Shown: positions 11 through 25,239, counted from the stretch's first letter. The stretch is DNA of 64,000 bases from SAR324 cluster bacterium (GCA_028282885.1 JANQGX010000032.1:86439-150438), one strand, 5' to 3'. The notes: generated from the sequence alone by a model not told the origin. Made by a program: numbers and translations.

Positions 11-1033
11 TTGCCCGTATCCCGTTTGGATGCGGGCATTGTTCAAAAAGGAGATTTTCAATTGACATCACGTTGGTGGATTAACCGGGGAGTTTCCAGC
101 TTGCTGGTACTGGTTGCGGCCTTGGTGGTCAACTTCGCCATTCCGCGATTAATGCCCGGCAGTCCCGTGGACATTTTCTCCGGTGGAGTGAAACTCACCC
201 GGGAGGCTCGACAGGCTATTGTGGAGCGTTTCGGTCTTGATGAGTCCGTCTGGGAACAATTCTATAAATATGTCGTCAATGCCGTCCAGGGTGATTTCGG
301 CGTTTCTTTCTTCTACTACCCCCAGCCGGTTATTGAGGTGATTATGGAAGCCCTTCCCTGGACGTTGCTGATTCTGGTGACTGCAATGATCTTTCAGGTC
401 GTTATCGGCTATTGGCTGGGAGCGATGGCTGCCTGGAAGGCCGGATCCAAAACGGATGCCATTCTCCAGGCGGTTTCGCTGTTTGTGTTTTCGACACCGC
501 TTTTCTGGGTAGCCATGGTCTTGCTCTATGTCTTTGGATATCAACTGGGCTGGTTTCCTTTGGGAGGCGCATACACCATCGGAGAAATATATGAGTCTGC
601 CTGGGACCAAGCATTGGATGTTATCAAGCATGCAACCCTGCCTGTGATATCATTGATCATTGCCCAGTACGCGACCTACCAGTTGATTCTAAGAAACAGT
701 ATGGTCGCTGTTCTCAAGGAGCAGTATATTCTTACTGCCGAAGCCAAAGGTTTGAGTAAGGGCCGGGTTAAACACCGGCACGCTGCCAGGAATGCCCTGT
801 TGCCCATGGTTACTTTCCTAAGCCTGAGCTTTGCCATCAGCCTGGGGGGATCAGTGTTTGTGGAAACTGTCTTTTCCTACCCCGGTGTTGGCAAACTGAT
901 TTTTGATTCGGTGATGTCCCGTGATTACCCGATGTTGCAGGGGTGTTTCTTTCTGTTTTCCCTGGTTGTCATTGCGGTTAATATCTTCGTGGATCTCATT
1001 TATCGATTTCTGGATCCAAGGATAGCGTACTGA
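11..1033 (+). CDS. ABC di/oligopeptide transporter permease, DppB/OppB family (N-terminus may extend upstream of window)
   Basis: 340-aa multi-TM protein with conserved BPD_transp_1 core (...EAKGLSKGRVKHRHAARNAL...); frame is open to position 2 so true start may be outside window; first of four contiguous Dpp/Opp-type genes. Confidence 0.85.
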   Translation: MPVSRLDAGIVQKGDFQLTSRWWINRGVSSLLVLVAALVVNFAIPRLMPGSPVDIFSGGVKLTREARQAIVERFGLDESVWEQFYKYVVNAVQGDFGVSFFYYPQPVIEVIMEALPWTLLILVTAMIFQVVIGYWLGAMAAWKAGSKTDAILQAVSLFVFSTPLFWVAMVLLYVFGYQLGWFPLGGAYTIGEIYESAWDQALDVIKHATLPVISLIIAQYATYQLILRNSMVAVLKEQYILTAEAKGLSKGRVKHRHAARNALLPMVTFLSLSFAISLGGSVFVETVFSYPGVGKLIFDSVMSRDYPMLQGCFFLFSLVVIAVNIFVDLIYRFLDPRIAY

Positions 1034-1165
1034 GACAAAAAGCAGTTCATCAAAAACCTGATATCCCCGATAGTCAACCGGGGTGAAGCCCCCGGAATTA
1101 GCGGTTAAGGGGCATTTCTGGTCTTTAATTGAGCGTTTCACGCAATTGAACGTGACACCGGTGTT

Positions 1166-2020
1166 ATGAGATCTGAACTACGAAAAATCGATCGATTCTG
1201 GCGAGTATATAAAAAAAGAAAATCGGCCGTTGCCGGATTGATTATTTTGACGGTGCTGGTAACAATTATCGTATTTGCACCAGTCTTCAGCCCCTACGAT
1301 CCTGATGCCAAAGATGCCATCCCCTTTACACCTCCGGGTTCGGAACATTTGCTGGGAACCAATGACATCGGAGTGGACATCCTCAGCGAAATGATCTATG
1401 CGGGCCGCGTATCCCTGATTGTGGGAATCACAGCCGCAGGGATCGTTGTTTTTATCGGATCCCTTATCGGGCTGTTCGCCGGTTTTCTGGGTGGATGGGT
1501 GGACGAGATTCTGATGAGAATAACGGATATCGTTATCATTTTGCCAAGATTCCCGCTGATGATCGTGATGGCTGCTTACCTGGGACCGGGAGTCTGGACC
1601 ATCATTTTTGCATATTCAATCGTCGGTTGGCCCAGTCTGACTAGACAGATCCGATCCCAAATACTATCCGTTAAGGAGGCTTCATTCATAGAAGCTTCCA
1701 GGGCGACGGGAGCCGGTAACATCCGGATTATGTTTACCCATGTTCTGCCCAATATCCAGGGAATCATCATCGCCAATGGTGTAATGGAGATCATGTTTGC
1801 CATTCTCACCGAAGCCGGATTGAGCTTCTTGGGACTGGGCGACCCCACCCAGAAAAGCTGGGGTGTGATGCTCTATTTTGCCCAGATTCAGGGTGCTTTT
1901 TTAAGAGGTGCCTGGTGGTGGATTTTTCCCCCGGGAATCTGCATTGCCTTGATTAGCTGTTCTTTTAACTATATCGGAACCGCCCTGAATGATCTTTTTG
2001 GATTGAAACTGGGCAAATAA
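1166..2020 (+). CDS. ABC di/oligopeptide transporter permease, DppC/OppC family
   Basis: 284-aa membrane protein, N-terminal OppC_N-like region followed by permease core; immediately follows DppB-like gene. Confidence 0.85.
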   Translation: MRSELRKIDRFWRVYKKRKSAVAGLIILTVLVTIIVFAPVFSPYDPDAKDAIPFTPPGSEHLLGTNDIGVDILSEMIYAGRVSLIVGITAAGIVVFIGSLIGLFAGFLGGWVDEILMRITDIVIILPRFPLMIVMAAYLGPGVWTIIFAYSIVGWPSLTRQIRSQILSVKEASFIEASRATGAGNIRIMFTHVLPNIQGIIIANGVMEIMFAILTEAGLSFLGLGDPTQKSWGVMLYFAQIQGAFLRGAWWWIFPPGICIALISCSFNYIGTALNDLFGLKLGK

Positions 2021-2114
2021 CAAGCTGGGGTTCAATGGAACAGGGATTTATCTGGGCATGTTTTCAAACTGGACATGCCAGGTAAGGCACTTATCCAAAT
2101 AAGAGGTTCGCTGA

Positions 2115-3083
2115 ATGAGTCTGCTGTCGATCGAGAATCTGAAAACCCACTATTATACTGATAGCGGTGTTGTAAAAGCGTTGGGAGGCGTGGACCTCAT
2201 CCTGGAAAAAGGAGAGTCCGTTGGGATTGCCGGCGAGTCCGGGTGCGGAAAAAGCACCTTGGCCTTGTCTTTGATCAGGCTGATTAAAAACGGAGAAATC
2301 ATCCATGGCAAGATTCGACTGGAGGGGCAATCCCTGTTGGAATTACCGGAAAAGGAGTTCAACAGGATACGGTGGAACAGGATTTCCATGATCTCGCAGG
2401 CAGCTATGGGCGGTCTGAATCCGGTCTTTACCATCGGAACCCAGATTGTGGAAGGGATTCTCCAACATCGAAAAATGAAGAAGAGAGCAGCCATGGCGCT
2501 GGCCAGGGAACTGTTGAGAAAGGTGGAGATTGATCCGGATATGGTGAAAAATTACCCACATCAACTCAGCGGAGGAATGAAACAGAGAGCCATGATCGCC
2601 ATGGCACTGGCTCTGGAACCGGATGTGGTTATAGCGGATGAACCGACTACGGCACTGGATGTGGTTATTCAGGCGCAGATTATCAAAATGCTGAGAAAGC
2701 TCCAGAAAGAGATGAATCTCTCGGTGCTTTTTATCTCACACGATCTCTCCATTCTGGCCCAGGCCTGTGACAGGATCATGATTATGTATGGCGGTAAGTG
2801 TATGGAATCGGGAGACACCGCTACCCTTTTTAAAAATCCGCAACATCCCTATACCAGGGCCCTGATCAATGCTTTTCCGGATTTGAAATCCAGGAGGGAT
2901 AAACTGACCGGCCTTCCCGGTAATACCCCGGATATGACAAACCCGCCAACCGGATGTTGCTTTCATCCCAGGTGTGCTCTGGTCAAAGATCGATGCATTT
3001 CTGAGCAACCGGTACGACAGGAAATCAATGGGGATCATGTGGTCTATTGCCATTTTGCAAAACCGTTATCAGAGGAGAATTAA
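2115..3083 (+). CDS. ABC transporter ATP-binding protein, DppD/OppD family
   Basis: Walker A GESGCGKST, ABC signature LSGGMKQR, Walker B VVIADEPTTALD, C-terminal oligopeptide-type extension with Cys cluster. Confidence 0.9.
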   Translation: MSLLSIENLKTHYYTDSGVVKALGGVDLILEKGESVGIAGESGCGKSTLALSLIRLIKNGEIIHGKIRLEGQSLLELPEKEFNRIRWNRISMISQAAMGGLNPVFTIGTQIVEGILQHRKMKKRAAMALARELLRKVEIDPDMVKNYPHQLSGGMKQRAMIAMALALEPDVVIADEPTTALDVVIQAQIIKMLRKLQKEMNLSVLFISHDLSILAQACDRIMIMYGGKCMESGDTATLFKNPQHPYTRALINAFPDLKSRRDKLTGLPGNTPDMTNPPTGCCFHPRCALVKDRCISEQPVRQEINGDHVVYCHFAKPLSEEN

Positions 3084-4051
3084 CAGTGGATGCGATTTAT
3101 CGGATAACCGATTTAACAAAATCATATCCGCTACCGGGGGGTGGACTGCTTAAAAAAAACCGAAAAGTATTCAGGGCAGTCGACAAGGTCAGTCTGGAGA
3201 TCAACTCCGGGGATACCTTTGGTATTGTTGGCGAGAGCGGCAGCGGTAAAACAACACTGGCCAGACTGCTGTTGCGCTTGATCGAGCCGACCGACGGCAA
3301 TGTCTATTATAAGGGAAGAGATGTATTCAGGCTTAACCGTAGTGAACTTAAGAAGACCCGCAAGGAAATCCAGATGATTTTTCAAGATCCTTATAGTTCC
3401 CTGGATCCCAGAAAATCGATTTTTAACATCATAGCGGAACCTCTGAAGGTCCATAAAACAGGCAGCCTGTCAGACATTCATACCAGAATTGTAGAGACAC
3501 TGGAATTGGTCGATTTGCCGACTTCGGATGATTTTCTCAGTAAAACACCGGGAGAAATCAGTGGTGGGCAACGACAGCGGATCGGTATTGCCAGAGCGCT
3601 TGTTTTAAAACCGGAATTCGTGGTGGCGGATGAGCCGGTCAGTATGCTGGATGCCAGCATCAAGGCTGGAATTATCGAGTTGATGACACAACTGAAAAAA
3701 AAGATCAATCTTACCTATGTCTTCATCACCCATGAACTGGCATTAGCATATCACTTCTGTAACCGGATTGCAGTGATGTACCTGGGTGAAGTGGTGGAGA
3801 CGGGGAATATCGATGATGTGATTCAATCTCCGGCACACCCTTATACCAGGCTGCTATTAGATTCCATACCACCGACCGAGCCCGATCCGGATTGGCTTGA
3901 CAAACGGTTTGGAAAATCAGATTTTTCCAGAAACGCCGAAGGATGCAAGTTTTTTGTGAGATGTCCAAATCCCAAGGATTCCTGTCTCCATTTCAGACCT
4001 TCGCTATCGGAAATCAAAAGAGGCCACATGGTAGCCTGCCAGTTGGGTTAA
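3047..4051 (+). CDS. ABC transporter ATP-binding protein, DppF/OppF family
   Basis: Walker A GESGSGKTT, signature ISGGQRQR, Walker B VVADEPVSMLD; overlaps upstream ATPase gene by 37 nt (operonic). Confidence 0.9.
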   Translation: MPFCKTVIRGELTVDAIYRITDLTKSYPLPGGGLLKKNRKVFRAVDKVSLEINSGDTFGIVGESGSGKTTLARLLLRLIEPTDGNVYYKGRDVFRLNRSELKKTRKEIQMIFQDPYSSLDPRKSIFNIIAEPLKVHKTGSLSDIHTRIVETLELVDLPTSDDFLSKTPGEISGGQRQRIGIARALVLKPEFVVADEPVSMLDASIKAGIIELMTQLKKKINLTYVFITHELALAYHFCNRIAVMYLGEVVETGNIDDVIQSPAHPYTRLLLDSIPPTEPDPDWLDKRFGKSDFSRNAEGCKFFVRCPNPKDSCLHFRPSLSEIKRGHMVACQLG

Positions 4052-4196: not shown

Positions 4197-6131
4197 ATGA
4201 ACCCGGAAGAGTATCTGATTGAGACAGGTAAGCCGTTTGAGTGGCAGTACCCCCTTGACTATAATGAAGTAATCGAAACCGAATGCGATGTACTGGTCCT
4301 TGGCGGTGGAGTTTCCGGTTGTTTTGCCGCCATTGCTGCCGCCAGAAAAGGCCTGCAGGTGACTCTGGTGGAAAAAGGATGTGTTAAACACAGTGGTGCT
4401 GCGGGTAGCGGTGTTGATCACTGGATGGATTGTCCTAGCAACCCTGCCAGCAGAATCACTCCGGAAGACTATATTAAGCCCCTGGACGTCCATAAGGGAG
4501 GATATGCCAACTACATTGGATCATACATCACTGCCAGGGATAGCTGGGAAACGTTACGTGAACTGGAAGAGATGGGGATGAAGATTCGCGATGAGGATGA
4601 TGTCTTTAAAGGAGCCGATTTTCGCGACGAGAAAAGCAAGCTTCTTTTTGCCTACGATTATACGACAAGACATTGCATCCGGATCTGGGGAACCCAGATG
4701 AAACCGGCTCTTTTCAAAGAGTGTAAAAGGCTGGGGGTAAACATGGTGGAAAGAACCATGGCAACAGATCTTTTGAATGAAAACGGAGAACAGGGTGCCA
4801 GGGTGGTGGGAGCAACAGGGATGAATGTACGAACCGGTGCCTTTCATGTTTTCAAAGCCAAAGCTACTGTACTCGCCATGGCAACCCCGGAAAGAGTCTG
4901 GATTTTCTCAACGGAACATACCGGACTTGTCGGCAGAGATGGTCCCCCCACCAACGCCGGAAACGGGTTTGCCATGGCCTGGAAGGCAGGAGCTGAATTT
5001 GTGCGTATGGAAGCCTCCAGCCACGAAGAGTGGGGTGGTAGTACAGGAATCGGAACCGTCATGTTTGGCAGCGGATCCAATTTTGCGACCTGGTTTCCCT
5101 GCTCTATTGTGGATGCCGAAGGCAAGGAGGTGCCCTGGATTGGTAAAAACGGAGAGATTATCGACAACTTCTCGCGGAGGGCTAATCCCGGTCCCGATGA
5201 CGACTTCTACTGCCTGGTACTGGGAGGTAAGGAAGATGTTTCAGTGGCCTTGCCCCAGCTTGTGCCGGACCTGAGAGAGAGAATTAAAAAAGGCGAGTTC
5301 AAACTGCCTCTCTATGCCGATCTTCCCGGGATTTCGGAACATGAACGACGTGCTATATTCGGCCTGATGGTCGGACAGGAAGGGCACACCTGGCCGGTTT
5401 ATCGAAATCTGACCAGGGCCGGCTTCGATCCGGATAAAGACATGCTCCAGGTTTACGAGTTGGGGGATGCCCCCTTGGGCTGGAGAAGATTAAGATACGG
5501 GGGTGTGATCACCGGATGGGACCTTCAGACCTCAGTGGAGGGGCTGTTTGCGGCAGGACAACAACTCTTCGACGGGATGGGCGTTGCCCATGCCTGCAGT
5601 ACGGGAAGATGGGCCGGCCGACATGCGGCCGAATTTGCGAAAAACGCAGATGAACCGGCAATCAGCACGGATCAAGTGAGCCGGGAAAGACAGAGAATCT
5701 ACTCTCCACTCAAAACAGAACAGGGAATTAACTGGAAGGAGCTAGCCGCTGGAATTGCCAAGGTTATGCAGGACTACTGCGGAGATACCAAAACCGATGA
5801 ACTGATGAAAATCGGGACCCTGGCCATCGATGAAATCAAACACTCCGAAGCTACCCAACTCCATGCCAGAAATCCTCATGAACTGATGAGAGCACTGGAG
5901 ATTCTGGATGTTCTGACGGTATGTGAAATGATTCTCGCTGCCTGCCGTGCCAGAAAAGCCAGCAATAGCTGGATTTTCTTCGAACACCTGGACTACCCCG
6001 AAAACGATCCTGATGACTGGCGCAAGTGGATTACTATTAAACTGGAAAAAAACGAAGAGGTTGTCGGTGAAGCCCCCTTGGATTTTTACGGCTCGCTGAC
6101 CGAAAATTATGAAAAGTATAAAATCGATTAA
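4197..6131 (+). CDS. FAD-dependent oxidoreductase, adenylylsulfate reductase alpha (AprA)/fumarate reductase flavoprotein-like
   Basis: 644 aa; N-terminal dinucleotide fold DVLVLGGGVSGCFAAIAAARKGLQVTLVEKG resembles AprA; size matches AprA (~660 aa); GAAGGAG RBS before ATG. Confidence 0.6.
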   Translation: MNPEEYLIETGKPFEWQYPLDYNEVIETECDVLVLGGGVSGCFAAIAAARKGLQVTLVEKGCVKHSGAAGSGVDHWMDCPSNPASRITPEDYIKPLDVHKGGYANYIGSYITARDSWETLRELEEMGMKIRDEDDVFKGADFRDEKSKLLFAYDYTTRHCIRIWGTQMKPALFKECKRLGVNMVERTMATDLLNENGEQGARVVGATGMNVRTGAFHVFKAKATVLAMATPERVWIFSTEHTGLVGRDGPPTNAGNGFAMAWKAGAEFVRMEASSHEEWGGSTGIGTVMFGSGSNFATWFPCSIVDAEGKEVPWIGKNGEIIDNFSRRANPGPDDDFYCLVLGGKEDVSVALPQLVPDLRERIKKGEFKLPLYADLPGISEHERRAIFGLMVGQEGHTWPVYRNLTRAGFDPDKDMLQVYELGDAPLGWRRLRYGGVITGWDLQTSVEGLFAAGQQLFDGMGVAHACSTGRWAGRHAAEFAKNADEPAISTDQVSRERQRIYSPLKTEQGINWKELAAGIAKVMQDYCGDTKTDELMKIGTLAIDEIKHSEATQLHARNPHELMRALEILDVLTVCEMILAACRARKASNSWIFFEHLDYPENDPDDWRKWITIKLEKNEEVVGEAPLDFYGSLTENYEKYKID

Positions 6132-6137
6132 AGGATT

Positions 6138-6488
6138 GTGAACATGAAGGAATCAAAAGTATATGCCCTCCCGAACAGAATCACCCCCAATCAGCCGGTA
6201 CTGATCGATGTCGAGGTCTGTATCGGCTGTAACCTTTGCGTTGAGGCTTGTCCCAACGATGTAATGATGCCCAATCCTGAGAAGAAAGAGGTACCGATCA
6301 TACTCTACCCTGAAGAATGCTGGTACTGCGCCTGTTGTGTCATGGAATGTCCCGTGAAAGACAAGAATGCCATTGAGGTCAACTGGCCCATGATGCAGCG
6401 TGTACGCTGGAAACGCAAGGAGACCGGTCAGCATTATCGAATTGGTATGCCCAATCCACCGGCTCCCAACACCAAACCCCCGGTTTAA
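6138..6488 (+). CDS. AprB-like 2x[4Fe-4S] ferredoxin
   Basis: 116 aa; two cluster motifs CIGCNLCVEACP and CWYCACCVMECP with the AprB-like spacing and a basic C-terminal tail; 6 nt downstream of flavoprotein gene. Confidence 0.6.
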   Translation: MNMKESKVYALPNRITPNQPVLIDVEVCIGCNLCVEACPNDVMMPNPEKKEVPIILYPEECWYCACCVMECPVKDKNAIEVNWPMMQRVRWKRKETGQHYRIGMPNPPAPNTKPPV

Positions 6489-6849
6489 AGTTGCTCGGTC
6501 AAAGTTTCTTTTAAAACCTTGTAGGTGCTGCCGCCAGGTGGTAATCAAATCAATTATCCAGGCCAGATTACGCAAAAATGCAACTACCTCAGTAACGCAA
6601 TCTCCATTGCGTGTTTCTTCCAAATACAGTTTTTCGGGAAACAGGGAGAAGTTTCCGGGAAGAGATATATTTTTCATTTATGTCCCTCCGAACTATCCGG
6701 CATACTTCTCACGGTTCGGCCGCTTGCAAAAGTGCTCAATTAGATGAATAATTACCGATAAAAGAACAATTGGAAACAAGAGTACACTTTTGCCGGCCGG
6801 TTCGGCACGAGCAAATCTAACCGAATTCAACCCGAATCAAACCACCATC

Positions 6850-8253
6850 ATGTCAGACACCATTTATGATATTGCCGTTATCGGTTCCGGTCCTGCCGGT
6901 GAGAAAGCCGCACTGGAAGCTGCGGGACTGGGAGCCAGTGTAGTTGTTATCGAAAAAGGAATCAGACCGGGGGGAGCTTCGGTTATTACCGGTACTATTC
7001 CCAGCAAGTCGTTGCGGGAGACGGTAAAGCATGTCGAACTCCTTTCCGGTGGCGAGATCAGTGGCATTGATGTCCGTCTTGATCGGAAGCTGACCATACC
7101 GGAGCTGATGAATCACAAAAACAATGTTATCTCCGAGCGGGTGGAGGATATTGTGTCAACCTACGAAAATGCCGGGGTGGATTATGTTTTCGGTAAGGCC
7201 CGCTTTCAAACTCCCCATGAGCTGTTTGTCGACTGTACTGAAAACAGCGAGTCCATGGTCATCAAAGCTGAAAAATTTATCATCGCCGTGGGGACCAATC
7301 CGTACCACCCTGAAGATATCGAATTTGACGGCAAATATATTCTTGATTCGGATACCATTCTGCAGTTGGAAGAGATACCCGAATCGCTTGTCATCATCGG
7401 TGGCGGTGTTATTGGTTGTGAATATGCTTCCATTTTCTGCAGATTGGGCACCAGGGTATCCCTGATTGATCCCAGGGGGGCATTGCTCGATTTCATCGAT
7501 CACGATATTTCCGAAGCCTTGGCAGGTCAAATGAGGGAGGATGGCATCAATCTCTGCCTTGCCTGTAATTACAAGGAAGTAAGAGTGGAAAACGGGTCGG
7601 TTGCTATATACCTGGACGATGGAAATAAGGTCCTGGCTTCTGCCATGCTGTTTGCAAACGGGCGCCAGGGAATGGCAGACGAGTTGAATCTAGACGTATG
7701 CGGGCTGGAGATCAACAGGCGAAATCAACTGGAAGTCAACGACAACTACCAGACCAGGGTTCCCCATATTTATGCCGTCGGAGATGTGATCGGTTTTCCC
7801 TCCCTGGTTTCCGTCAGCAATGAAGAGGGTCGTATGGCCGCCAGAAGTGCGGTATTAGGAGAGCATACCCAAAGGGTTGGATCCAACATCCCTTACGGCA
7901 TTTATACGATTCCCGAGATTTCCATGATCGGTCCTACGGAGAAAGAACTGATCGATCAGGGGGTCTCGTACGGGATTGGAATCTGTCGATTCAAAGACCT
8001 GGCCAGGGGGCTGATCATCGGCGATCGAATCGGGATGGTCAAACTGCTTTTTCACAAGGAAACAAAAGAGCTGCTGGCTGTCCATATGTTTGGTAAAACA
8101 GCATCGGAGCTGGTCCATATTGCCCAGGCCGTGATTCATTACAGGGGTAAGATCGACTATTTCCTGGACAATGTTTTCAATTTTCCCACCCTCTCCTCTT
8201 CCTTCAAGGTCGCCGCCCGGCAGGGATTAATGGAAATTGATCAATCGGATTAA
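6850..8253 (+). CDS. sthA: soluble pyridine nucleotide transhydrogenase
   Basis: Near-collinear similarity to E. coli SthA (IYDIAVIGSGPAGE..., KFIIAVGTNPYHPEDIEFDGKYILDSDTIL..., VIGCEYASIF..., YAVGDVIGFPSL..., IPYGIYTIPEIS...); start reassigned to ATG 6850 by alignment with SthA N-terminus (ORF track gives 6790). Confidence 0.8.
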   Translation: MSDTIYDIAVIGSGPAGEKAALEAAGLGASVVVIEKGIRPGGASVITGTIPSKSLRETVKHVELLSGGEISGIDVRLDRKLTIPELMNHKNNVISERVEDIVSTYENAGVDYVFGKARFQTPHELFVDCTENSESMVIKAEKFIIAVGTNPYHPEDIEFDGKYILDSDTILQLEEIPESLVIIGGGVIGCEYASIFCRLGTRVSLIDPRGALLDFIDHDISEALAGQMREDGINLCLACNYKEVRVENGSVAIYLDDGNKVLASAMLFANGRQGMADELNLDVCGLEINRRNQLEVNDNYQTRVPHIYAVGDVIGFPSLVSVSNEEGRMAARSAVLGEHTQRVGSNIPYGIYTIPEISMIGPTEKELIDQGVSYGIGICRFKDLARGLIIGDRIGMVKLLFHKETKELLAVHMFGKTASELVHIAQAVIHYRGKIDYFLDNVFNFPTLSSSFKVAARQGLMEIDQSD

Positions 8254-9041
8254 CCGGGGATCTCCAAATCGATTCCGACCGGACAGTGGTCGGAGCCGAA
8301 TATGTCATTGTCGATAAAGGCTTCCTTTAACCAGTTTTGTTCGATCAGGTTACGGGTAACAAAGAAATAGTCAATACGCCACCCTGCGTTTGTTTTTCGA
8401 GCGTTAAACCGGTAAGACCACCATGAATACTTGACGGTATCGGGGTAAAGGTGCCGGAAGGTATCCACGTAGCCCTCTTCTATGATCCTGTCCAGCCAGT
8501 CTCTTTCGATGCGTAAAAATCCCGATCGCTTTTCGTTGGATTTTGGGTGTCGCAGATCGATCTCGTTGTGTGCCGTGTTGTAATCACCGGTAATAACCAG
8601 GGGAATGTCCTTCTTTTTGAACTGATCCAGATACTTGAAAAAGGCGTCGTAAAAATCCAGCTTGTACTGCAGGCGCTCATCATCCTTCTGACCGTTGGGG
8701 AAGTAAATATTGTAAAGCCTGAAGTTTTCAAAAACCAGTTCCAGAATCCTCCCTTCCTGGTCGAATTTCTCGATCCCAACTCCGTGATTGACTTCCAGCG
8801 GTTTAATCCTGGAGTAGACGGCTACACCGCTATAACCTTTTTTTACTGTTGAATAGGACCAGTAGGACTCATACCCTTTCATGTTGATCATGGCATCCTC
8901 TCGCTGGTGATCCTGCAGTTTGGTTTCCTGGATGCAGAGCACATCGGCATCCATCTGTTTGACCAGCTTGGGGAAATCTTTTTTCATCACGGCCCTGAGT
9001 CCGTTAACATTCCAGGAAATTATTTTCATATTCCGGCTCAT
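8250..9041 (-). CDS. xth: exodeoxyribonuclease III
   Basis: 263 aa, MKIISWNVNGLRA... N-terminus and Xth/APE1 fold motifs throughout (QETK, GDYN, SDHCPV). Confidence 0.9.
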   Translation of the reverse strand: MSRNMKIISWNVNGLRAVMKKDFPKLVKQMDADVLCIQETKLQDHQREDAMINMKGYESYWSYSTVKKGYSGVAVYSRIKPLEVNHGVGIEKFDQEGRILELVFENFRLYNIYFPNGQKDDERLQYKLDFYDAFFKYLDQFKKKDIPLVITGDYNTAHNEIDLRHPKSNEKRSGFLRIERDWLDRIIEEGYVDTFRHLYPDTVKYSWWSYRFNARKTNAGWRIDYFFVTRNLIEQNWLKEAFIDNDIFGSDHCPVGIDLEIPG

Positions 9042-9047
9042 ATCTTT

Positions 9048-9212
9048 TTACTCCTCATATTTTCTGAATTCTGATTTTGGAAGTCCGCAGGCGGGGCAGA
9101 TCCAATCCTCAGGGAGATCCTCAAATGGGGTACCGGGTTCGATTCCCATATCCGGAATTCCTTCGTCCGGATCGTATGTATAAAAACAGCTGCTGCAGAC
9201 ATATCTCACCAT
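9048..9212 (-). CDS. rubredoxin (54 aa; absent from ORF track because <60 aa)
   Basis: Manual translation of minus strand: [54 protein letters not shown]; two CxxC knuckles with canonical rubredoxin spacing; AGAGG RBS 6 nt upstream; ends 7 nt before xth start. Confidence 0.8.
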
Positions 9213-9268
9213 GTTAACCTCTTGCTTGTTTTGTTGCTCGATTCACGGTTTCCCGTGTTCACTTAACT

Positions 9269-9934
9269 TCATCGCTGCTCACCCGGGGCTAAATCAGAAC
9301 TACTCCCGCGCTCATCCTTCTTCCCGGATCTTACCAGGGTGTGGTATCCGGCAAAGATCCGCAGAATGGTAGTAATCCAGCAGAGAATCGCAAATCCATA
9401 AGCCAAAATCGGAAAATGGGAGGGAAAAAGACAGAACAGAACCATGATGGCGATGGTTTCGGTTCCTTCGGTCAGCCCTTCAAGATAGTAAAGACTTTTC
9501 TGGGGATACACAATACTCTTGATGTCCTGTTTGGCTGCCATAACCGCAAAGGCCAGAAAACTGGTTCCGGTTCCCATGAATGAAACCACAAGGGTGACAG
9601 CCGGAAGCCCGTTAACTTCGGGGTTTGCCAGCGCGAAGCCCCAGACTACCCCTGAATAGAATATAAAATCCAGCGTTATATCCAGAAAACCGCCCGCATC
9701 GGTCACTCCTCTTATTCTGGCCAACGTTCCATCCAGCCCGTCCATGATTCGGTTAATAACTATGGCGACCAACGCCAGTAAATAGCGTTCCTGCCAGAGT
9801 GCCGGTATAGCCAGAATGCCAATCAGAAAGCCGATAACGGAGATCTGGTTGGCGGTAATTCCCGTTTTTTCAACCAGATTCGCTGTTCTTTTGAGGAACG
9901 GCTTAGACCACTCAATTGTCCATCTGTCCAACAT
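9269..9934 (-). CDS. CDP-alcohol phosphatidyltransferase family protein
   Basis: Signature DGLDGTLARIRGVTDAGGFLDITLD (D-G-x2-A-R-x8-G-x3-D-x3-D); multi-TM; start moved to ATG 9934 (AAGGGGG RBS) rather than ORF-track 9994. Confidence 0.75.
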   Translation of the reverse strand: MLDRWTIEWSKPFLKRTANLVEKTGITANQISVIGFLIGILAIPALWQERYLLALVAIVINRIMDGLDGTLARIRGVTDAGGFLDITLDFIFYSGVVWGFALANPEVNGLPAVTLVVSFMGTGTSFLAFAVMAAKQDIKSIVYPQKSLYYLEGLTEGTETIAIMVLFCLFPSHFPILAYGFAILCWITTILRIFAGYHTLVRSGKKDERGSSSDLAPGEQR

Positions 9935-9935
9935 C

Positions 9936-10256
9936 TCAACCCCCTTGATCTGCCAGGTTGATGATCTGTCCGTCAGGACAGTCATAGTGATCATGAAAAA
10001 CCGGCAACACCGGGATATTCATTTCTTTGGTGGTTTCAAAATCGAAGCAATGAATGTGATTCTTAGTCATGGAATCAATAATCGGTTTATGACGCAAACC
10101 ACGACACATCAGCACCAGGATCCTACGTCCAGGCTGACAGGTTCCGTTACAATCGTATCGATTCGCGTCATGCTCATAAACAGCGTTGGCAAGTATCGGG
10201 CCACGAAATAAGAAAAACCGGTGAAAAGATAAACCAACTCCTCTTAATGATATCAC
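9936..10256 (-). CDS. CGGC-domain-like Cys/His-rich small protein (start uncertain)
   Basis: 106-aa ORF with CNGTCQPG and multiple conserved C/H residues resembling the CGGC domain; its stop abuts the downstream start with the RBS embedded (translational coupling), supporting that it is coding; only a GTG start without clear RBS. Confidence 0.4.
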   Translation of the reverse strand: MISLRGVGLSFHRFFLFRGPILANAVYEHDANRYDCNGTCQPGRRILVLMCRGLRHKPIIDSMTKNHIHCFDFETTKEMNIPVLPVFHDHYDCPDGQIINLADQGG

Positions 10257-10429
10257 AGAAGGAGTCTAAAATAAATATCCTAGACTCTATCGGCAATTGT
10301 CGGAGTTATCGTCATCTTCCTGGTGAGATCCGACCCTCGCAACTACGAAACCCGAAATACCAATCCTGTCAATCCTTTTTTGAAGATCCTAATTTAAACA
10401 TTCAACTTGGAAAAGTGACTCAGGTAAGA

Positions 10430-10462
10430 AAAACCTGTCTCAAGACACTAGCTGAGACAGGT
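10430..10462 (-). terminator. rho-independent terminator after sterol-desaturase-family gene
   Basis: 11-bp perfect stem AACCTGTCTCA/TGAGACAGGTT followed on the minus strand by TTTTTCTT, 9 nt downstream of the stop at 10471. Confidence 0.5.
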
Positions 10463-10470
10463 TTGAAGGC

Positions 10471-11262
10471 CTATCGTTTGTTGATAAAGGGTTGGATTAA
10501 CAACCAATGCAGGTGGGAATACTTGGGGTTCCTGAAGAGCTCTATACCGATAGCCATGTTTTCATGCCCTTGTTCAGGCTGGTCACGATAAGTGCCAAAT
10601 AACTTATCCCACCAGGAAAGAAAAAATCCATAATTACTATCGGTTTCACGGCGCATGATGGAATGATGAACCCGATGCATATCGGGAGTGACGATAAACA
10701 GGCGAAGTATGCGGTCGATGGCTCCCGGTAATCTGATATTACCGTGGTTGAACATGGCCGAGCTGTTTAGAATCAGTTCAAAAACCAGTACAGCCAGAAC
10801 CGGTGGCCCGAGCACGACAACCACCGACATTTTGACAAACATGGACAGTATAATCTCAATGGGGTGGAAGCGTAGCGCAGTGGTGACATCGAAATCCATG
10901 TCGGTGTGATGCATGCGGTGCAAAAGCCATAATCGAGGCACCATGTGAAAGACCAGGTGCTGAAAATAGATGGTCATATCCAGCAGCAAAACCGATAAAA
11001 TGAAGGCAAGTTCGTAGGGAACCCGGAAATTGTTGAACAATCCCCAGCCTCTTTGTGTAGCCAGGTGTGCCAATCCCACGGCCAAAATGGGAAAAAGCCA
11101 GCGCAACAAAGCGCTGCTGACCACCACAATTCCGAGATTACTGTACCACCTTATAAGTCGTGAAACGGTTGCCTGTCTTCGCGGAAGTAGAAACTCCCAT
11201 ACAGCGATCACAACCAGCGTTCCAAGAAATATGCTTAGGCGGATTGTAAGTTCGTTTTCCAT
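10471..11262 (-). CDS. fatty acid hydroxylase/sterol desaturase family protein
   Basis: Histidine boxes HRMHH and HRVHH in a multi-TM protein; start placed at ATG 11262 (MENELTIRLSIFLG..., GGGGG RBS) instead of ORF-track 11361. Confidence 0.7.
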   Translation of the reverse strand: MENELTIRLSIFLGTLVVIAVWEFLLPRRQATVSRLIRWYSNLGIVVVSSALLRWLFPILAVGLAHLATQRGWGLFNNFRVPYELAFILSVLLLDMTIYFQHLVFHMVPRLWLLHRMHHTDMDFDVTTALRFHPIEIILSMFVKMSVVVVLGPPVLAVLVFELILNSSAMFNHGNIRLPGAIDRILRLFIVTPDMHRVHHSIMRRETDSNYGFFLSWWDKLFGTYRDQPEQGHENMAIGIELFRNPKYSHLHWLLIQPFINKR

Positions 11263-11850: not shown

Positions 11851-13992
11851 GTGAACAAACAAAGGGTGCTGAGACTGGGAGTTGTTGTACTGATTATAGG
11901 ATTGATCGGATCCGTTTTCATTTTTGATCTGCAGCAGTATTTTACCCTGGAATATATCAAAAGCAGGCAACAGCTATTCGGCGACTACTACAGGGACAAC
12001 ACGGCATTCACAATCCTGGTGTTTTTGGGGGTTTATGTTATCTCTACTGCCATCTCCATCCCCGGGGCCGCTGTTCTAACCCTGATGGCCGGCGCTCTTT
12101 TTGGCCTCCTCTGGGGAACTGTCATCGTCTCCTTCGCCAGTTCCATCGGGGCAACCCTGGCGTTTATCACCTCCCGCTTTCTTTTGAGGGATTTTGTGCA
12201 AAAGAAGTTCGGGAGCCAGTTGGAAACCATTAACAAAGGGATTCGTAAGGAAGGGGAATACTATCTTTTTACCCTGCGATTGATACCGGTTTTTCCTTTT
12301 TTCCTGATTAATCTCTCTATGGGACTAACACCGATTGGACTGCTCAAGTACTATGTGGTTAGTCAGATCGGAATGCTCCCCGGCACCATTGTTTATGTTT
12401 TCGCCGGAACCCAGTTGGCGAAAGTCGAATCGCTCGGGGGGATTCTGTCACCCGGTCTGATTGCAGCTTTCACCCTTCTGGGACTATTTCCCCTTATCGC
12501 TAAAAAAGGAGTCGCCATGGCTAACTCGCGAAGAGCCCTGAAAAAGTACAAATCTCCCGGGAATTTTGATTATAACGTTGTGGTGATCGGAGCCGGATCC
12601 GGCGGTCTGGTTGCATCGTACATTTCGGCTGCCGTCAAGGCCAAAGTCGTTTTGATCGAGAAGCACAAGATGGGGGGTGATTGCCTGAATACCGGTTGTG
12701 TTCCCAGCAAAGCCCTGATTCGTTCCGCTAAAATGCTATCCTATGCGGAACGGGCAAAGGATTTCGGATTTGAAAAAACCAAGGTGGACTTCGACTTCAA
12801 GACAGTCATGGAGCGGGTAGCCGGGGTGATAAAGAAGGTCGAGCCCCATGATTCCGTTGAACGCTATCAGGATCTTGGCGTGGAGTGTATCACCGGTGAA
12901 GCCGAAATAATCGATCCATATCGTGTCAAGGTAAATGGCAATGTCATTACAACCAAAAACATCGTCGTGGCCAGCGGTGCCTCTCCGTTTGTTCCCCCAA
13001 TTCCGGGTATCGATCAGATGGATTACCTGACCAGTGACACGCTGTGGAACATCAGGGACCTCCCTAAACGTTTGATTATCCTGGGTGGCGGTCCGATCGG
13101 CAGTGAAATGGCTCAGACGTTTGCTCGACTGGGCTCGGAAGTTTCCCAGGTCGAGATGGCGCCTCAAATTCTGATCCGTGAGGATGAAGAGGTCAGTAAT
13201 CTGGTCGCGGAAAAGTTCAGAAAGGAAGGGGTCAAGGTCCTTACCGGGCACCGGGCCAAGGAGTTTCTAAAGGAAGACGGTGAGAAGATCCTGGTTTGTG
13301 AAGCCGAAGGAAAAGATGTCAGGATTCCTTTTGACCAGGTTATCGTAGCAGTCGGTCGCAGGGCGAATACCAAGGGATTCGGACTTGAGGAGCTGGGTGT
13401 TGAAATCGCCAAAAATGGAACCATCTCGCATGATGAGTATCTGAGGACGAATTACCCAAATATCTTCGTTTGTGGCGATGTGGCGGGACCTTATCAATTT
13501 ACCCATACAGCATCCCATCAGGCCTGGTATGCAGCCGTTAATGCTCTCTTTCGACCTTTCAGACAATTCAAGGTGGATTACCGCGTTATTCCCTGGTGTA
13601 CCTTCACTGATCCGGAAGTTGCGCGGGTCGGTTTGAATGAAAAGGAGGCCATGGAAAAGGATATCCCTTATGAAGCCACTGTCTACGGTATCGATGATCT
13701 GGACAGGGCTATCGCTGACAGCGAAGATCACGGATTCATAAAGGTTATAACCCCGCCGGGAAAAGACAAGATACTGGGCGTAACCATTGTTGGTACCCAT
13801 GCGGGCGACCTGATAGCAGAGTTTGTGTTGGCCATGAAGAATGGTCTGGGGCTGGGAAAGATTCTGGGAACCATCCATATCTACCCGACCCTGGGAGAAG
13901 CCAACAAGTATGCGGCTGGTAACTGGCGGAAGAATCACATACCGGAGAGACTGATGAGGTTTCTGGAGAAGTTCCATGCCTGGCGACGATAG
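11851..13992 (+). CDS. bifunctional DedA/TVP38-TMEM64 family membrane protein fused to FAD-dependent pyridine nucleotide-disulfide oxidoreductase
   Basis: 713 aa; N-terminal ~230 aa multi-TM with DedA-like region (...GAAVLTLMAGALFG...), C-terminal ~480 aa with FAD fold YNVVVIGAGSGGLVAS, redox-active disulfide GGDCLNTGCVPSK, NAD fold LIILGGGPIGSEMAQ and dimerisation domain. Confidence 0.8.
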   Translation: MNKQRVLRLGVVVLIIGLIGSVFIFDLQQYFTLEYIKSRQQLFGDYYRDNTAFTILVFLGVYVISTAISIPGAAVLTLMAGALFGLLWGTVIVSFASSIGATLAFITSRFLLRDFVQKKFGSQLETINKGIRKEGEYYLFTLRLIPVFPFFLINLSMGLTPIGLLKYYVVSQIGMLPGTIVYVFAGTQLAKVESLGGILSPGLIAAFTLLGLFPLIAKKGVAMANSRRALKKYKSPGNFDYNVVVIGAGSGGLVASYISAAVKAKVVLIEKHKMGGDCLNTGCVPSKALIRSAKMLSYAERAKDFGFEKTKVDFDFKTVMERVAGVIKKVEPHDSVERYQDLGVECITGEAEIIDPYRVKVNGNVITTKNIVVASGASPFVPPIPGIDQMDYLTSDTLWNIRDLPKRLIILGGGPIGSEMAQTFARLGSEVSQVEMAPQILIREDEEVSNLVAEKFRKEGVKVLTGHRAKEFLKEDGEKILVCEAEGKDVRIPFDQVIVAVGRRANTKGFGLEELGVEIAKNGTISHDEYLRTNYPNIFVCGDVAGPYQFTHTASHQAWYAAVNALFRPFRQFKVDYRVIPWCTFTDPEVARVGLNEKEAMEKDIPYEATVYGIDDLDRAIADSEDHGFIKVITPPGKDKILGVTIVGTHAGDLIAEFVLAMKNGLGLGKILGTIHIYPTLGEANKYAAGNWRKNHIPERLMRFLEKFHAWRR

Positions 13993-23547: not shown

Positions 23548-25239
23548 ATGGATATTGATATTTCAATAAAAATTGGCGGTGAAGCCGGGCAGGGTATCCA
23601 GACTGTGGGTGACCTCCTGGCCAATGTCTGCCGTGAAGCAGGGCTCTATATCACTGGCATCAATGATTTCGAGTCCAGAATCAGGGGCGGACACAGTTAT
23701 TTTCAGATCAGAATATGCAATACGTCGGTTTCAGCTCCGGAAACCACTGCCCACATGGTGGTTGCGCTGAATGAACAGACCTATGAGTTGCATCACCAGG
23801 ATATTCATGAGGGTGGGCTTGTTATAATGGATGCCCGTGAAGCCCCGGCTGAAAACGTGATTGCGGTTCCCATCAGGGAGTTGGCAGTGGAAGCCGGGGG
23901 CAGGGTGATGGCCAACACGGTTGCTGTCGGTGCTGTGCTCGGTTTGCTGGGTGCCCCTTTTCACATCCTGGAAGGCTTGCTGACCAGACGCTTTTCCAGA
24001 AAAAGCCAACAGATCGTGGATAACAATATTGCAGCTGCCAAACTGGGTTTTGAGGCCGTCAAAGATACTTCTTTCAAATGGTCCTTCGACTGGAACAGGG
24101 GAGAACCCAAGGGAACCCTTATCAACGGTTCTAAAGCGGTAGCTCTCGGGGCTCTGGCTGCAGATTGTCGATTCGCCGCATTTTACCCCATGTCTCCGGC
24201 TACCTCCGTCATGCAGGATCTGAACTCCTTTTCCGGTAAAATTCCCATGATAGTGGAACAGGTGGAGGATGAGATCGCCGCAGTCAACGCCATCATTGGG
24301 GCTTCATATGCCGGGATTCGATCAATGACCTCCACGTCGGGCGGCGGATTTTCCCTGATGGTGGAAGGACTCGGTCTGGCCGGGATTACGGAAACTCCTA
24401 TTGTTGTCGTCGATGCCCAACGACCCGGACCTGCTACCGGATTGCCGACCCGTACCGCCCAACCCGACCTGCTTTTTGCCATCAGGGCGTCCCAGGACGA
24501 ATTCCCCAGGTTTGTGCTGGCCCCGGGATCGCCGGGAGAGGCCTATACCATTACCACCAGGGCGTTCGAACTGGCCGACAAGTACCAGGTGCCGGTTATC
24601 ATCCTGGTTGACCAGTATCTCTGCGACTCTCTCTTTATCGAAGAGAACCCATTTAAAATTCCCACCGAGATTAATCGTTATACCGTCACCGACGAGGATA
24701 TGGCTGACCCGAGACAATATGTCCGTTATGCCCTGACCGAAGACGGCGTCTCTCCAAGAGCCCTGCCATGCAATGGTGAAGCCCTGGTGATGGCCTCCGG
24801 GAATGAGCATACGGAAGACGGCCATATCAGTGAAGATCCTGCCAACCGGGTTGCCATGATGGATAAACGCGCCGCTAAAATCCCGAGGATGATTGATGAA
24901 CTGGATCCGCCCGAAACTTATCATGGTGAAAGCGAATTGCTGGTTGTGGGATGGGGATCCACCAGGGGCGCTATCAGAGAAGCGGTAGAGATCCTGAGAA
25001 ACGGGGGAATGGATATCGGCTGCCTGCATTTCACGGACATCTGGCCGTTTCCCACAGATGTTGTGACGGCCGCACTTGAAAAAGCCGAACGGTTTGTCAT
25101 GGTGGAGCAAAACTCATCGGCCCAGTTTGGACAGTTGATCAGGGAACAAACCGGTCTGTCTTACTCCGCATCAATCCTCAAATATGACGGCAGGCCTTTC
25201 TATACTGATGAGGTTGTTGAGAAAATCAAACAGATATAA
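23548..25239 (+). CDS. 2-oxoacid:ferredoxin oxidoreductase, fused gamma/alpha subunit
   Basis: 563 aa; N-terminal gamma-like domain (MDIDISIKIGGEAGQGIQTVGDLLA...) followed by alpha (KorA-like) domains. Confidence 0.8.
   Translation: MDIDISIKIGGEAGQGIQTVGDLLANVCREAGLYITGINDFESRIRGGHSYFQIRICNTSVSAPETTAHMVVALNEQTYELHHQDIHEGGLVIMDAREAPAENVIAVPIRELAVEAGGRVMANTVAVGAVLGLLGAPFHILEGLLTRRFSRKSQQIVDNNIAAAKLGFEAVKDTSFKWSFDWNRGEPKGTLINGSKAVALGALAADCRFAAFYPMSPATSVMQDLNSFSGKIPMIVEQVEDEIAAVNAIIGASYAGIRSMTSTSGGGFSLMVEGLGLAGITETPIVVVDAQRPGPATGLPTRTAQPDLLFAIRASQDEFPRFVLAPGSPGEAYTITTRAFELADKYQVPVIILVDQYLCDSLFIEENPFKIPTEINRYTVTDEDMADPRQYVRYALTEDGVSPRALPCNGEALVMASGNEHTEDGHISEDPANRVAMMDKRAAKIPRMIDELDPPETYHGESELLVVGWGSTRGAIREAVEILRNGGMDIGCLHFTDIWPFPTDVVTAALEKAERFVMVEQNSSAQFGQLIREQTGLSYSASILKYDGRPFYTDEVVEKIKQI

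Follow-up and report, generated by a model that had tools for sequence, protein, structure and literature searches.

A transporter-linked flavoprotein and ferredoxin pair of APS reductase-like architecture, lacking the APS reductase catalytic residues, in a SAR324 cluster bacterium

The adenosine 5'-phosphosulfate (APS) reductase of Archaeoglobus fulgidus, AprBA (structures 1JNR and 2FJA), combines a flavoprotein of the fumarate reductase fold, AprA, with a subunit carrying two [4Fe-4S] clusters, AprB. The catalytic residues of AprA are Asn74, Trp234, Arg265 and His398, whilst the adenine is clamped by Arg-A317 and Leu-A278 and the ribose and phosphate are contacted by Val273, Gly274, Tyr95 and His446 (PMC2211403). 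Soluble alpha-beta proteins of this architecture also occur outside dissimilatory sulfate reduction: 'AprAB-like' proteins have a tail-less AprB and gaps in the AprA capping and helical domains, and are encoded beside sulfur-assimilation genes (Neukirchen & Sousa 2021, PMC8477390), and the reductase for 3'-phosphoadenosine 5'-phosphosulfate (PAPS) of Methanothermococcus thermolithotrophicus (MtPAPSR; 8A8O) is a biochemically characterised enzyme of tail-less AprAB-type architecture that retains the Apr catalytic residues (PMC10322725). Here we describe two adjacent genes, alpha and beta, at positions 4197-6488 of a 64,000 nt stretch of DNA from a SAR324 cluster bacterium (GCA_028282885.1, JANQGX010000032.1:86439-150438), the whole of which is referred to as the window. 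They encode a flavoprotein and ferredoxin of APS reductase build, whose family is a further, more distant branch than the 'AprAB-like' proteins, has importers and regulators rather than sulfur-assimilation genes as neighbours, and is without the catalytic residues. A literature search found no paper on this family, members of which carry the public names 'succinate dehydrogenase/fumarate reductase flavoprotein subunit' (JGI) or 'FAD-dependent oxidoreductase', FAD being flavin adenine dinucleotide. The two genes are arranged as follows.

4197-6131, + strand: alpha, catalytic FAD subunit, 644 aa, its ATG start preceded by a GGAG site
6144-6488, + strand: beta, 2x[4Fe-4S] subunit, 114 aa, with its own ribosome-binding site and a start 12 nt past the alpha stop codon

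A preliminary description of the region had reported a 644 aa flavoprotein with an AprA-like FAD fold and a 116 aa partner with twin [4Fe-4S] motifs. The open reading frame (ORF) of alpha was confirmed, and the cysteine motifs of beta, CIGCNLCVEACP and CWYCACCVMECP, agree with those quoted letter for letter. The 116 aa version of beta (6138-6488, + strand) begins at a GTG codon; the ATG at 6144 is the more likely start, because it lies 7 nt past an AAGGA site and is the one chosen by gene callers. More than 160 loci, spread over many phyla, contain the pair, which therefore cannot be a chance pairing of ORFs. A 174 aa ORF antisense to beta (6153-6677, - strand), likewise open in some dozen relatives, is not called by gene finders, and was rejected as a gene because its recurrence most likely mirrors the codon structure of the conserved ferredoxin gene.

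The Pfam matches of alpha are both generic, comprising FAD_binding_2 (residues 31-272) and Succ_DH_flav_C (520-622); no Pfam model matches the capping domain (about 273-440). No NCBIfam model reaches its cut-off either, the best scores being those of PRK08275 (NF006131; 232 bits against a cut-off of 587) and PRK13800 (168 bits), whilst the AprA models PRK06854 (NF005331) and TIGR02061 score 150.3 bits against 557 and 108.5 bits against 641.75 respectively, and all models for Sdh, Frd and NadB fall far under their cut-offs. When compared with solved structures using phmmer, alpha matched MtPAPSR (8a8o_A, E value 6e-29) and then A. fulgidus AprA (1jnr_A, 2e-25), and a profile of 32 family sequences returned them in the same order (158 bits, 2e-45, and 135 bits). 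The AlphaFold2 model of alpha (pLDDT 86, pTM 0.90) found AprA as its best Foldseek match (2fja_A; E value 1e-32, TM score 0.72, 22% identity), as expected from the AprA-like fold first proposed, with PAPS reductase second (8a8o_A; 1.3e-32); TM scores for AprA and PAPS reductase ranged from 0.70 to 0.72, and flavoproteins of the Frd/Sdh type were weaker, at about 1e-25. Aligning the family with an AprA alignment using hhalign gave a probability of 99.9 at 26% identity.

A neighbour-joining tree (554 columns, 200 bootstraps), simple and with few reference sequences, was calculated for 24 family members, AprA, a partial MtPAPSR sequence, two PRK08275 proteins, SdhA, FrdA and NadB of Escherichia coli and one Sdh-like protein. 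The family was monophyletic with 100% bootstrap support, as was the cluster of AprA with MtPAPSR, and the group made up of the family, Apr/PAPSR and PRK08275 was split from Sdh/Frd/NadB, again at 100%. Alpha belongs to the Apr-like half of the fumarate reductase superfamily but outside AprA, and does not fall inside any characterised non-Apr family; its own clade forms a third deep branch, beside Apr/PAPSR and PRK08275, on this side of the superfamily. The family is a large one, with 2847 matches at E<=1e-10 in a 90%-clustered collection. A 50%-clustered library gives about two dozen clusters of full length at more than 560 bits; the next matches down are to relatives of about 560 aa, each aligned in two stretches.

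The active site of AprA was traced in alpha through two independent alignments, with hhalign and MAFFT. The reference was a 643 aa AprA of the A. fulgidus type, rebuilt from a frameshifted assembly, in which 18 of 18 published residue numbers fall on the correct amino acid. In that Archaeoglobus assembly (GCA_001684035.1; L088 2614-4543), two frameshifts break aprA into three ORFs; assembly or sequencing errors are the probable cause, because all the published residue numbers are recovered in the joined translation. The equivalents in alpha are:

AprA Asn74: Asp74 by hhalign, Met77 by MAFFT
AprA Trp234: Gly249 by hhalign, Asp248 by MAFFT
AprA Arg265: Gly280 by hhalign, Trp279 by MAFFT
AprA His398: Ala425 by hhalign, a gap by MAFFT
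AprA His446: Met461 by hhalign, a gap by MAFFT
AprA Phe448: Val463 by hhalign, Gly462 by MAFFT
AprA Arg317: a gap by both, alignment confidence being low around residue 317
AprA Leu278: aligned to Thr298

Both methods concur that all four catalytic residues, and the adenine and ribose contacts, are replaced, so that no catalytic or APS-binding residue survives at the site which the preliminary description had singled out for inspection. Two observations are independent of any alignment: residues 273-309 of alpha include no Arg or Lys, and residues 405-445 include no His. The elements characteristic of fumarate reductase fare no better, as the HPT His, the capping domain T-E-G/Arg and the Arg of HGANRLG are missing or deleted in the alignment of alpha, the catalytic set tested being FrdA His232, Arg287, His355 and Arg390. 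Judged from these sequence comparisons, the pair is almost certainly not an APS or PAPS reductase, and alpha is not a succinate or fumarate enzyme.

The family has a conserved set of residues of its own. Asp74, Trp299, Cys302 and Asp306 are among the invariant positions of alpha, along with R131/D132, R143/D144, R328 and R384, and His75 and Trp76 are near-invariant. The motif G-x-D74-H75-W76 lies in a loop that faces the flavin in this fold, and Asp74 and His75 are candidates for the acid/base of the reaction. A second family motif, W299-x-x-C302-x-x-x-D306-x-x-G309 (W-x-x-C-x-x-V-D-A-x-G-K), is found in the capping domain, and the subclade to which the window protein belongs also has an Arg-rich W429-R-R-L-R-Y-G-G where Frd has His-Tyr-x-Met-Gly-Gly. 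At the position of the His that binds FAD covalently in Sdh/Frd, alpha has Gly67, and its FAD is therefore predicted to be non-covalent. Across the superfamily, FAD that is not covalently bound is associated with reductases, AprA and NadB, and not with succinate oxidation.

Beta is a dedicated electron-transfer subunit and not a generic ferredoxin, as can be concluded from its adjacency to the flavoprotein gene, an aromatic residue at a key position and a family-specific C-terminal extension. The neighbourhoods of 204 family flavoprotein genes in 164 loci were surveyed over a 5 kb range, using crude ORF calling: a homologous ferredoxin gene adjoins 145 of the 204, downstream in 132 cases and upstream in 13, the latter (B-A) arrangement being typical of proteobacterial members. 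Nineteen of those without an adjacent ferredoxin gene are at contig edges, and many are tandem paralogues sharing a single ferredoxin. Trp60 of beta, the residue immediately following the first Cys in the second cluster motif, occupies the position of the electron-relay Trp48 of AprB, which is aromatic in 44 of 44 family partners (W in 37, Y in five and F in two). The extension of about 40 residues that is kept in the family (…A-I…N-x-P-L-x-Q-R-V-x-W-K-R-K-x-T-G-E-x-F-R…) reads …RVRWKRKETGQHYRIG… in the window beta.

This extension is shorter than the tail of AprB, as had been noted: 44 residues follow the last Cys-Pro of beta, against 93 in the 150 aa Archaeoglobus AprB, and the Pfam model APS-reductase_C (PF12139), which matches the latter, does not match beta. 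The aprB model TIGR02060 scores 28.6 bits on beta against a cut-off of 135.65, and the tblastn alignment of AprB to beta is limited to AprB residues 2-65, whilst the beta subunit of MtPAPSR (8a8o_C, 104 aa) matches with an E value of 3e-10. The cluster ligands are eight Cys, with an additional Cys64. Seven of the cluster Cys are invariant across the 44 aligned partners; the other, the second of motif 2 (Cys62 of the 114 aa protein, at about 6327-6329), is Cys in 20 partners, Gly in 11, Asp in eight and Glu in five. By analogy, this Cys is presumed to be a ligand of the flavin-proximal cluster, and its variation suggests tuning of cluster ligation or potential, or 3Fe/4Fe variation, across the family. 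Partners bearing Gly at this position often have an extra Cys two residues further on; example ferredoxins examined for this Cys are those at 11926-12198 of L025, 7711-8049 of L005 and 4986-5282 of L067.

Overall, the resemblance to AprBA lies in the fumarate reductase fold, with its FAD, capping and helical domains, in the near-identical size of the flavoprotein (644 aa against 643), in the predicted non-covalent FAD and in a 2x[4Fe-4S] beta with an equivalently placed Trp. The differences are an identity of only 22-26%, a capping domain that cannot be aligned by sequence, the failure to keep any of Asn74, Trp234, Arg265, His398, Arg317, His446 and Phe448, a beta without the roughly 45-residue tail of PF12139, and a first cluster motif that is a plain CxxCxxCxxxC where AprB has CxxCx7CxxxCP. 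MtPAPSR shares the tail-less, short beta (104 aa against 114) and is the best sequence match among solved structures, and yet it keeps the Apr catalytic residues, has 38% identity to AprA and groups with AprA apart from the window family. With SdhA, FrdA and NadB, alpha has in common the FAD-binding and helical domains of the superfamily and a 'DP-K-[DE]' stretch before the second segment of the FAD domain; it differs in the residues listed above, in its iron-sulfur partner and in forming a separate clade.

The PRK08275/PRK13800 proteins resemble the window pair in giving the best NCBIfam score, in lying on the Apr-like branch and in having the A-B gene order with a small ferredoxin, and in Rhizobium sp. 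BT04 the PRK08275 gene also adjoins an ABC (ATP-binding cassette) importer. They are nonetheless only 28% identical to alpha and about 578 aa long, keep an Asn aligned to AprA Asn74, and are accompanied by a 77 aa ferredoxin and by HEAT-repeat and DUF971 proteins, neither of which is present at the window pair. The Rhizobium member scores 1082 bits on NF006131, with its cut-off of 587. Searching plasmids with tblastn retrieved only relatives with <=34% identity, of the PRK08275 type, and a literature search on PRK08275 and on the fumarate reductase superfamily with a ferredoxin subunit returned no papers. The cassette in cultured rhizobia, consisting of DUF971, flavoprotein, 77 aa ferredoxin and HEAT-repeat protein genes, is an uncharacterised but experimentally accessible relative, for which two examples are:

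L089 (Rhizobium sp. BT04 plasmid), 7676-10914: PRK08275 cassette
L090 (Mesorhizobium japonicum pMLa), 7677-10913: PRK08275 cassette

The informative context of the pair, absent from the preliminary description, lies upstream. The four genes directly before alpha (62-4051) belong to a Dpp/Opp-type ABC importer and encode its two permeases and two ATPases; the binding protein and a regulator are encoded just beyond the left edge of the window, in a longer assembly of the same DNA (L001, in which the coordinate minus 3855 is that of the window).

62-1033, + strand: DppB/OppB-type ABC permease (Pfam BPD_transp_1 and BPD_transp_1_N; gene call), the first importer gene inside the window
1166-2020, + strand: DppC/OppC-type ABC permease (Pfam OppC_N and BPD_transp_1; NCBIfam Opp4C 263 bits, under cut-off)
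2115-3083, + strand: DppD/OppD-type ABC ATPase (Pfam ABC_tran and oligo_HPY)
3086-4051, + strand: DppF/OppF-type ABC ATPase (Pfam ABC_tran and oligo_HPY; gene call)
L001 2228-3853: SBP_bac_5 binding protein (gene call), just beyond the left edge of the window
L001 1254-1952: GntR/FCD regulator (gene call), just beyond the left edge of the window

The start at 1166 is favoured for the DppC/OppC-type permease because OppC_N covers residues 10-51 of the 284 aa ORF. In the subclade of the window protein (>=57% identity), a unit of SBP_bac_5, two permeases, two ATPases, alpha and beta is found; the full arrangement is present in L001, L003, L004, L005 and L011, with the GntR/FCD regulator in L001 and L004, and the DppB/OppB-type permease gene is collinear with that of the flavoprotein in L003-L008 and L011. 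The hosts of the subclade are metagenome-assembled genomes of Actinomycetota, Heimdallarchaeota, Acidobacteria and Dehalococcoidia, along with unclassified metagenome contigs; the metagenome scan gave mainly relatives at 45-54% identity and few close orthologues of the subclade. Members of the family as a whole have further hosts amongst the Dehalococcoidia, Acidobacteriota, Marinimicrobia, and Heimdall-, Thor- and Promethearchaeota.

Across the 164 loci, the commonest neighbours are likewise ABC ATPases (32), SBP_bac_5 proteins (29) and Dpp permeases (24). In other clades the transporter beside alpha is often of a different kind: an SSF symporter, scoring at superfamily level only, abuts alpha in seven loci (from Marinimicrobia, Pirellulales, Phycisphaerae, Gemmatimonadota, Vicinamibacterales and Eubacteriales), a major facilitator superfamily transporter does so in L178, and Liv-type ABC systems are present in about ten loci, including L177, where a Liv-type binding protein lies beside alpha. 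Other recurrent neighbours, a heterogeneous set, include short-chain dehydrogenases/reductases (SDR; 11), URO-D/MtaA-like proteins (ten), Amidohydro_2 (nine), aldehyde:ferredoxin oxidoreductase (AFOR; nine) and MarR (six). Tandem flavoprotein paralogues are found in 29 loci. We consider it probable that alpha and beta constitute a transporter-linked enzyme acting on an imported solute, and the mixture of neighbours, together with the tandem paralogues, suggests that different members handle different imported substrates. The nearest solved relatives of the SBP_bac_5 protein bind peptides, nickel, mannosides or chitin oligomers, and so do not point to one solute; the GntR regulator scores best, with 91 bits under a cut-off of 271, on the model for PhnR, which is associated with phosphonate. 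In Chloroflexota, Bacillota and sediment contigs the tandem paralogues number two to four per locus, often with an importer and genes for URO-D/MtaA-like proteins or Amidohydro_2 in between (L050 1658-14468, L014 5647-12880, L051, L108 and L167).

None of this resembles the surroundings of canonical APS reductase genes. The order sat-DUF6955-aprB-aprA in the Archaeoglobus contig bears out the statement that the dissimilatory genes have the opposite order to the A-B arrangement seen here, but the significance attached to this 'reversal' does not hold: A-B is the normal order in the family and also occurs in the PRK08275 cassette. Since the order varies within the family, it is uninformative on function. 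The absence of sat from the window was upheld by tblastn with Archaeoglobus Sat, AprA and AprB, which gave no match beyond the pair, whilst for qmoABC, reported absent at the same time, no search by name was made. No APS kinase or sulfite reductase context was present in the window or, as for sat, in the related loci examined, and none of ten other large window ORFs sampled was a sulfur-metabolism gene. Of the genes associated with canonical aprBA, namely sat and qmoABC (or aprM), none recurs among the gene clusters that neighbour the family in the 164 loci.

Downstream of beta, the preliminary description had proposed a link to an adjacent soluble transhydrogenase gene, sthA. The gene is present as described; the features of the interval are:

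6595-6612, + strand: terminator-like hairpin with a T-rich tail, downstream of beta (consensus scan only)
6724-6752: promoter-like site between beta and the sthA-type gene (consensus match, weak evidence)
6850-8253, + strand: flavoprotein of the NAD(P) transhydrogenase family, SthA type (563 bits on NF003585, cut-off 465; best start ATG 6850)

The gap between beta and this gene is 361 bp and holds both the hairpin and the promoter-like site; an Rfam scan of it identified no RNA family. The hairpin is the likely end of the operon on the basis of its sequence, although it constitutes weak evidence for a terminator, because the region yielded seven such sites where shuffled sequence would be expected to yield 3.8. 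In the first 83 loci, sthA adjoins the pair only on contigs of this genome itself (L001 and L002), and it is absent from beside the pair in the closest relatives, L003, L004, L005 and L011. It is probably a separate transcription unit and is unlikely to be part of the alpha-beta system; SthA is thus an improbable partner, and of the suggested non-canonical AprAB-like oxidoreductase it is the architecture, fold and non-canonical status that stand, and not the link to sthA.

A pyridine nucleotide-linked partner is nonetheless a real theme in the family. In L119 and L128, the stop codon of a gene for a true family flavoprotein (47% identical to that of the window) is overlapped by another gene, the product of which, about 610 aa long, contains beta in split form: the N-terminus has the first cluster motif, matching residues 10-44 of the window beta, and the C-terminus has the second motif and family tail, matching residues 51-101 at 53% identity. 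Between the two halves is a GltD-like Fer4_20 + Pyr_redox_2 NAD(P)H-oxidoreductase of about 480 aa. Two further contigs (L177 and L178) have such a gene directly after a family flavoprotein with 45-47% identity and the GVDHW motif, followed in L177 by a GntR gene, and a database search found at least 19 protein clusters of 582-608 aa carrying both this N-terminal motif and, at the C-terminus, the tail CWFCG-CV--CP…WKRK-TGE-FR.

L119 8114-9946: split-beta/GltD-like gene
L128 2422-4248: split-beta/GltD-like gene
L177 8001-9755: split-beta/GltD-like gene
L178 8001-9809: split-beta/GltD-like gene
P0395-P0415: split-beta/GltD-like genes

The module is of the GltD type known from dihydropyrimidine dehydrogenase (DPD; PreT/PreA), glutamate synthase and NfnAB, and the resulting chain, from NAD(P)H through FAD and iron-sulfur clusters to a catalytic flavin, has a layout resembling that of DPD or GltBD, although in this sublineage the module sits between ferredoxin halves and the catalytic subunit has a fumarate reductase fold in place of a TIM-barrel FMN (flavin mononucleotide) domain; the window beta is without the module. 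As the GltD-like module is built into beta, NAD(P)H is the likely redox partner of the catalytic flavin in the sublineage, via the clusters of beta. This provides a precedent in kind for a role of sthA, yet no support for sthA itself. In characterised GltD-type systems, such as DPD and glutamate synthase, the module usually feeds NAD(P)H electrons inward for substrate reduction. GltD-like genes in L062, L068 and L071 were discounted, as they follow a different flavoprotein with 27% identity. The JGI names of the split-beta proteins, 'formate dehydrogenase major subunit' and 'glutamate synthase beta-like', look to be misannotations.

The reading we prefer, though with confidence that is evenly balanced, is that alpha and beta form a soluble flavo-iron-sulfur oxidoreductase with the build of APS reductase and an active site of its own, which works with the upstream Dpp-type importer and GntR/FCD regulator. 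We infer that an anionic organic compound would be imported, most likely a carboxylate and possibly derived from an amino acid or peptide, and that alpha would bind it between its FAD domain and the capping domain peculiar to this family. A two-electron reaction could then occur at flavin N5, with the invariant Asp74 and neighbouring His75, predicted to lie next to the flavin, as the putative acid/base, and electrons would pass singly between FAD and an external partner via Trp60 and the two [4Fe-4S] clusters of beta. Were the reaction reductive, the substrate would be reduced through beta by a donor of low potential or one derived from NAD(P)H. Arguing by analogy, we lean slightly towards this direction, a reductase being modestly favoured over a dehydrogenase because of the GltD-like fusion, because the FAD is predicted to be non-covalent and because the closest characterised relatives are reductive in their physiology.

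Several observations count against this proposal. The direction comes from analogy only, and an operon of transporter and regulator fits a catabolic dehydrogenase equally well. The position of the family as sister to Apr/PAPSR has a bootstrap value of only 61% in what is a simple tree, and the capping domain alignments are uncertain, with hhalign and MAFFT a few residues apart. The clade with the NAD(P)H module is only 45-47% identical to the window protein, and this genome has no such module. Enzymes encoded nearby vary from locus to locus (M19, M20, M28 and M61 peptidases, amidohydrolases, URO-D/MtaA-like proteins, AFOR, SDR and sulfatases), none of them being significantly enriched, and members also occur in likely aerobes of the Burkholderiales, Actinomycetota and Acidobacteria.

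Of the alternatives, the one with most in its favour is that the same complex and transporter run oxidatively, as a catabolic dehydrogenase for an imported compound of the amino acid, peptide, amine or hydroxy acid type, with electrons passing via beta to ferredoxin, rubredoxin or another acceptor; we hold this to be possible, if on the doubtful side. An operon comprising a regulator, an importer and a single enzyme would suit such a role, as would the Dpp/Opp type of the importer, the presence of the family in aerobic lineages, a YheO-type (PAS_6 + HTH_22) regulator in L014, and the hydrolases near some members (M19, M28 and amidohydrolase in L014, M20/M28 directly upstream in L095, M19 in L085, M61 in L025, and GGACT on the P0004 contig). 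L-aspartate oxidase, within the same superfamily, oxidises its substrate. However, the association with peptidases, whilst suggestive, is not above that expected from gene density, no acceptor is encoded in the operon, non-covalent FAD and a low-potential type of 2x[4Fe-4S] subunit are more typical of reductases, and the GltD-like module fused into beta in one sublineage usually passes NAD(P)H electrons inward in characterised enzymes. A different origin for the electrons is envisaged in a three-component system, where NAD(P)H would be oxidised by the SthA-type flavoprotein and electrons handed to beta and on to alpha. The SthA-type gene is the next one on the same strand, and other members have a Pyr_redox_2 NAD(P)H module built into beta, but given the adjacency limited to L001 and L002, the intervening hairpin and promoter-like site, and the fact that the protein passes the SthA equivalog model, has no iron-sulfur domain and shows only Rossmann-level similarity to the GltD-like module, we regard this arrangement as unlikely.

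The other three alternatives concern the chemistry of alpha. AprAB and MtPAPSR, the nearest characterised relatives, use an N5-sulfite adduct mechanism, and AprA-style attack of N5 on the sulfur of a non-nucleotide compound could in principle release sulfite reductively from an imported organosulfonate or sulfate ester. In L039 and L096 there are sulfatase genes near family members, and L073 has an arylsulfotransferase-like gene, in a gene cluster present in about four loci; set against this, Asn74, Trp234, Arg265 and His398, which polarise the sulfate, are all replaced, sulfatases are neighbours in only about two of the 164 loci, and there is no recurrent sulfite reductase, exporter or sulfite-handling gene nearby, so that this chemistry seems very improbable. 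Less probable still is a divergent but genuine APS or PAPS reductase: although AprA and MtPAPSR are the best matches in fold and sequence among solved structures, and a tail-less beta is shared with MtPAPSR and 'AprAB-like' proteins, the family forms a separate clade far under the cut-offs of the Apr models, has none of the sulfur-activation context sought, and lacks both catalytic and nucleotide-binding residues, whereas MtPAPSR keeps the catalytic ones. We attach just as little weight to a soluble fumarate reductase, succinate dehydrogenase or L-aspartate oxidase, as might be read from the JGI names of homologues and from the matches to FAD_binding_2 and Succ_DH_flav_C, given that the HPT His, the capping Thr/Glu/Arg and the Arg of H-G-A-N-R-L-G are missing or deleted, that all the corresponding models fall far under their cut-offs with complete bootstrap support for separation of the clades, and that the partner is a 2x[4Fe-4S] ferredoxin and not of the SdhB type.

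The preferred reading, of an importer-coupled oxidoreductase, does not overturn current understanding, and the finding is best viewed as an annotation caution and a tractable target for enzyme discovery. As the family carries Sdh/Frd names and resembles AprA, metabolic reconstructions could err, with members being taken as evidence for a step of the tricarboxylic acid cycle or for sulfate/sulfite metabolism in uncultured lineages; a residue test, requiring the presence of G-x-D-H-W and the absence of Asn74, Trp234, Arg265 and His398, separates the family cleanly. For enzyme discovery, this is a sizeable, paralogue-rich family that combines an Apr-like electron-transfer scaffold with a new active site and coupling to importers, and the binding protein and GntR regulator give direct access to the substrate by experiment. 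A third deep branch also bears on the role of the ancestral AprA-type enzyme. Were the organosulfur reading (or one involving another oxyanion) to prove true, the family would be a new branch of flavin-N5-adduct enzymes and, in the organosulfur case, would represent an unrecognised organosulfur-cycling step in Dehalococcoidia, Desulfobacterota, Acidobacteriota, Marinimicrobia and Asgard archaea.

Elsewhere, the window contains a set of genes typical of an oxygen-tolerant anaerobe, the products of which are possible low-potential electron sources or sinks for alpha and beta:

9048-9212, - strand: 54 aa rubredoxin
23548-25239, + strand: 2-oxoacid:ferredoxin oxidoreductase fusion (POR + POR_N + PFOR_II)
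29129-30373, + strand: flavodiiron protein (ODP beta-lactamase fold + flavodoxin)
30508-31944, + strand: cytochrome bd subunit I

A second gene of the PNDOR family lies within 6 kb of the sthA-type gene (11851-13992, + strand). It encodes an unusual membrane-tethered flavoprotein, a 713 aa fusion in which an N-terminal VTT/DedA membrane domain is joined to a complete pyridine nucleotide-disulfide oxidoreductase (PNDOR), made up of Pyr_redox_2 and a dimerisation domain. The sole Rfam family to pass its threshold in the window is a thiamine pyrophosphate (TPP) riboswitch, RF00059 (40936-41026, + strand; 61.2 bits against a gathering score of 54.3). At 52204-53823 (+ strand) is a gene for a diguanylate cyclase (GGDEF) carrying a hemerythrin domain at its C-terminus, suggestive of O2- or iron-sensing signalling through cyclic di-GMP; PAS histidine kinases encoded around it include those at 35815-38601 and 57048-59357.

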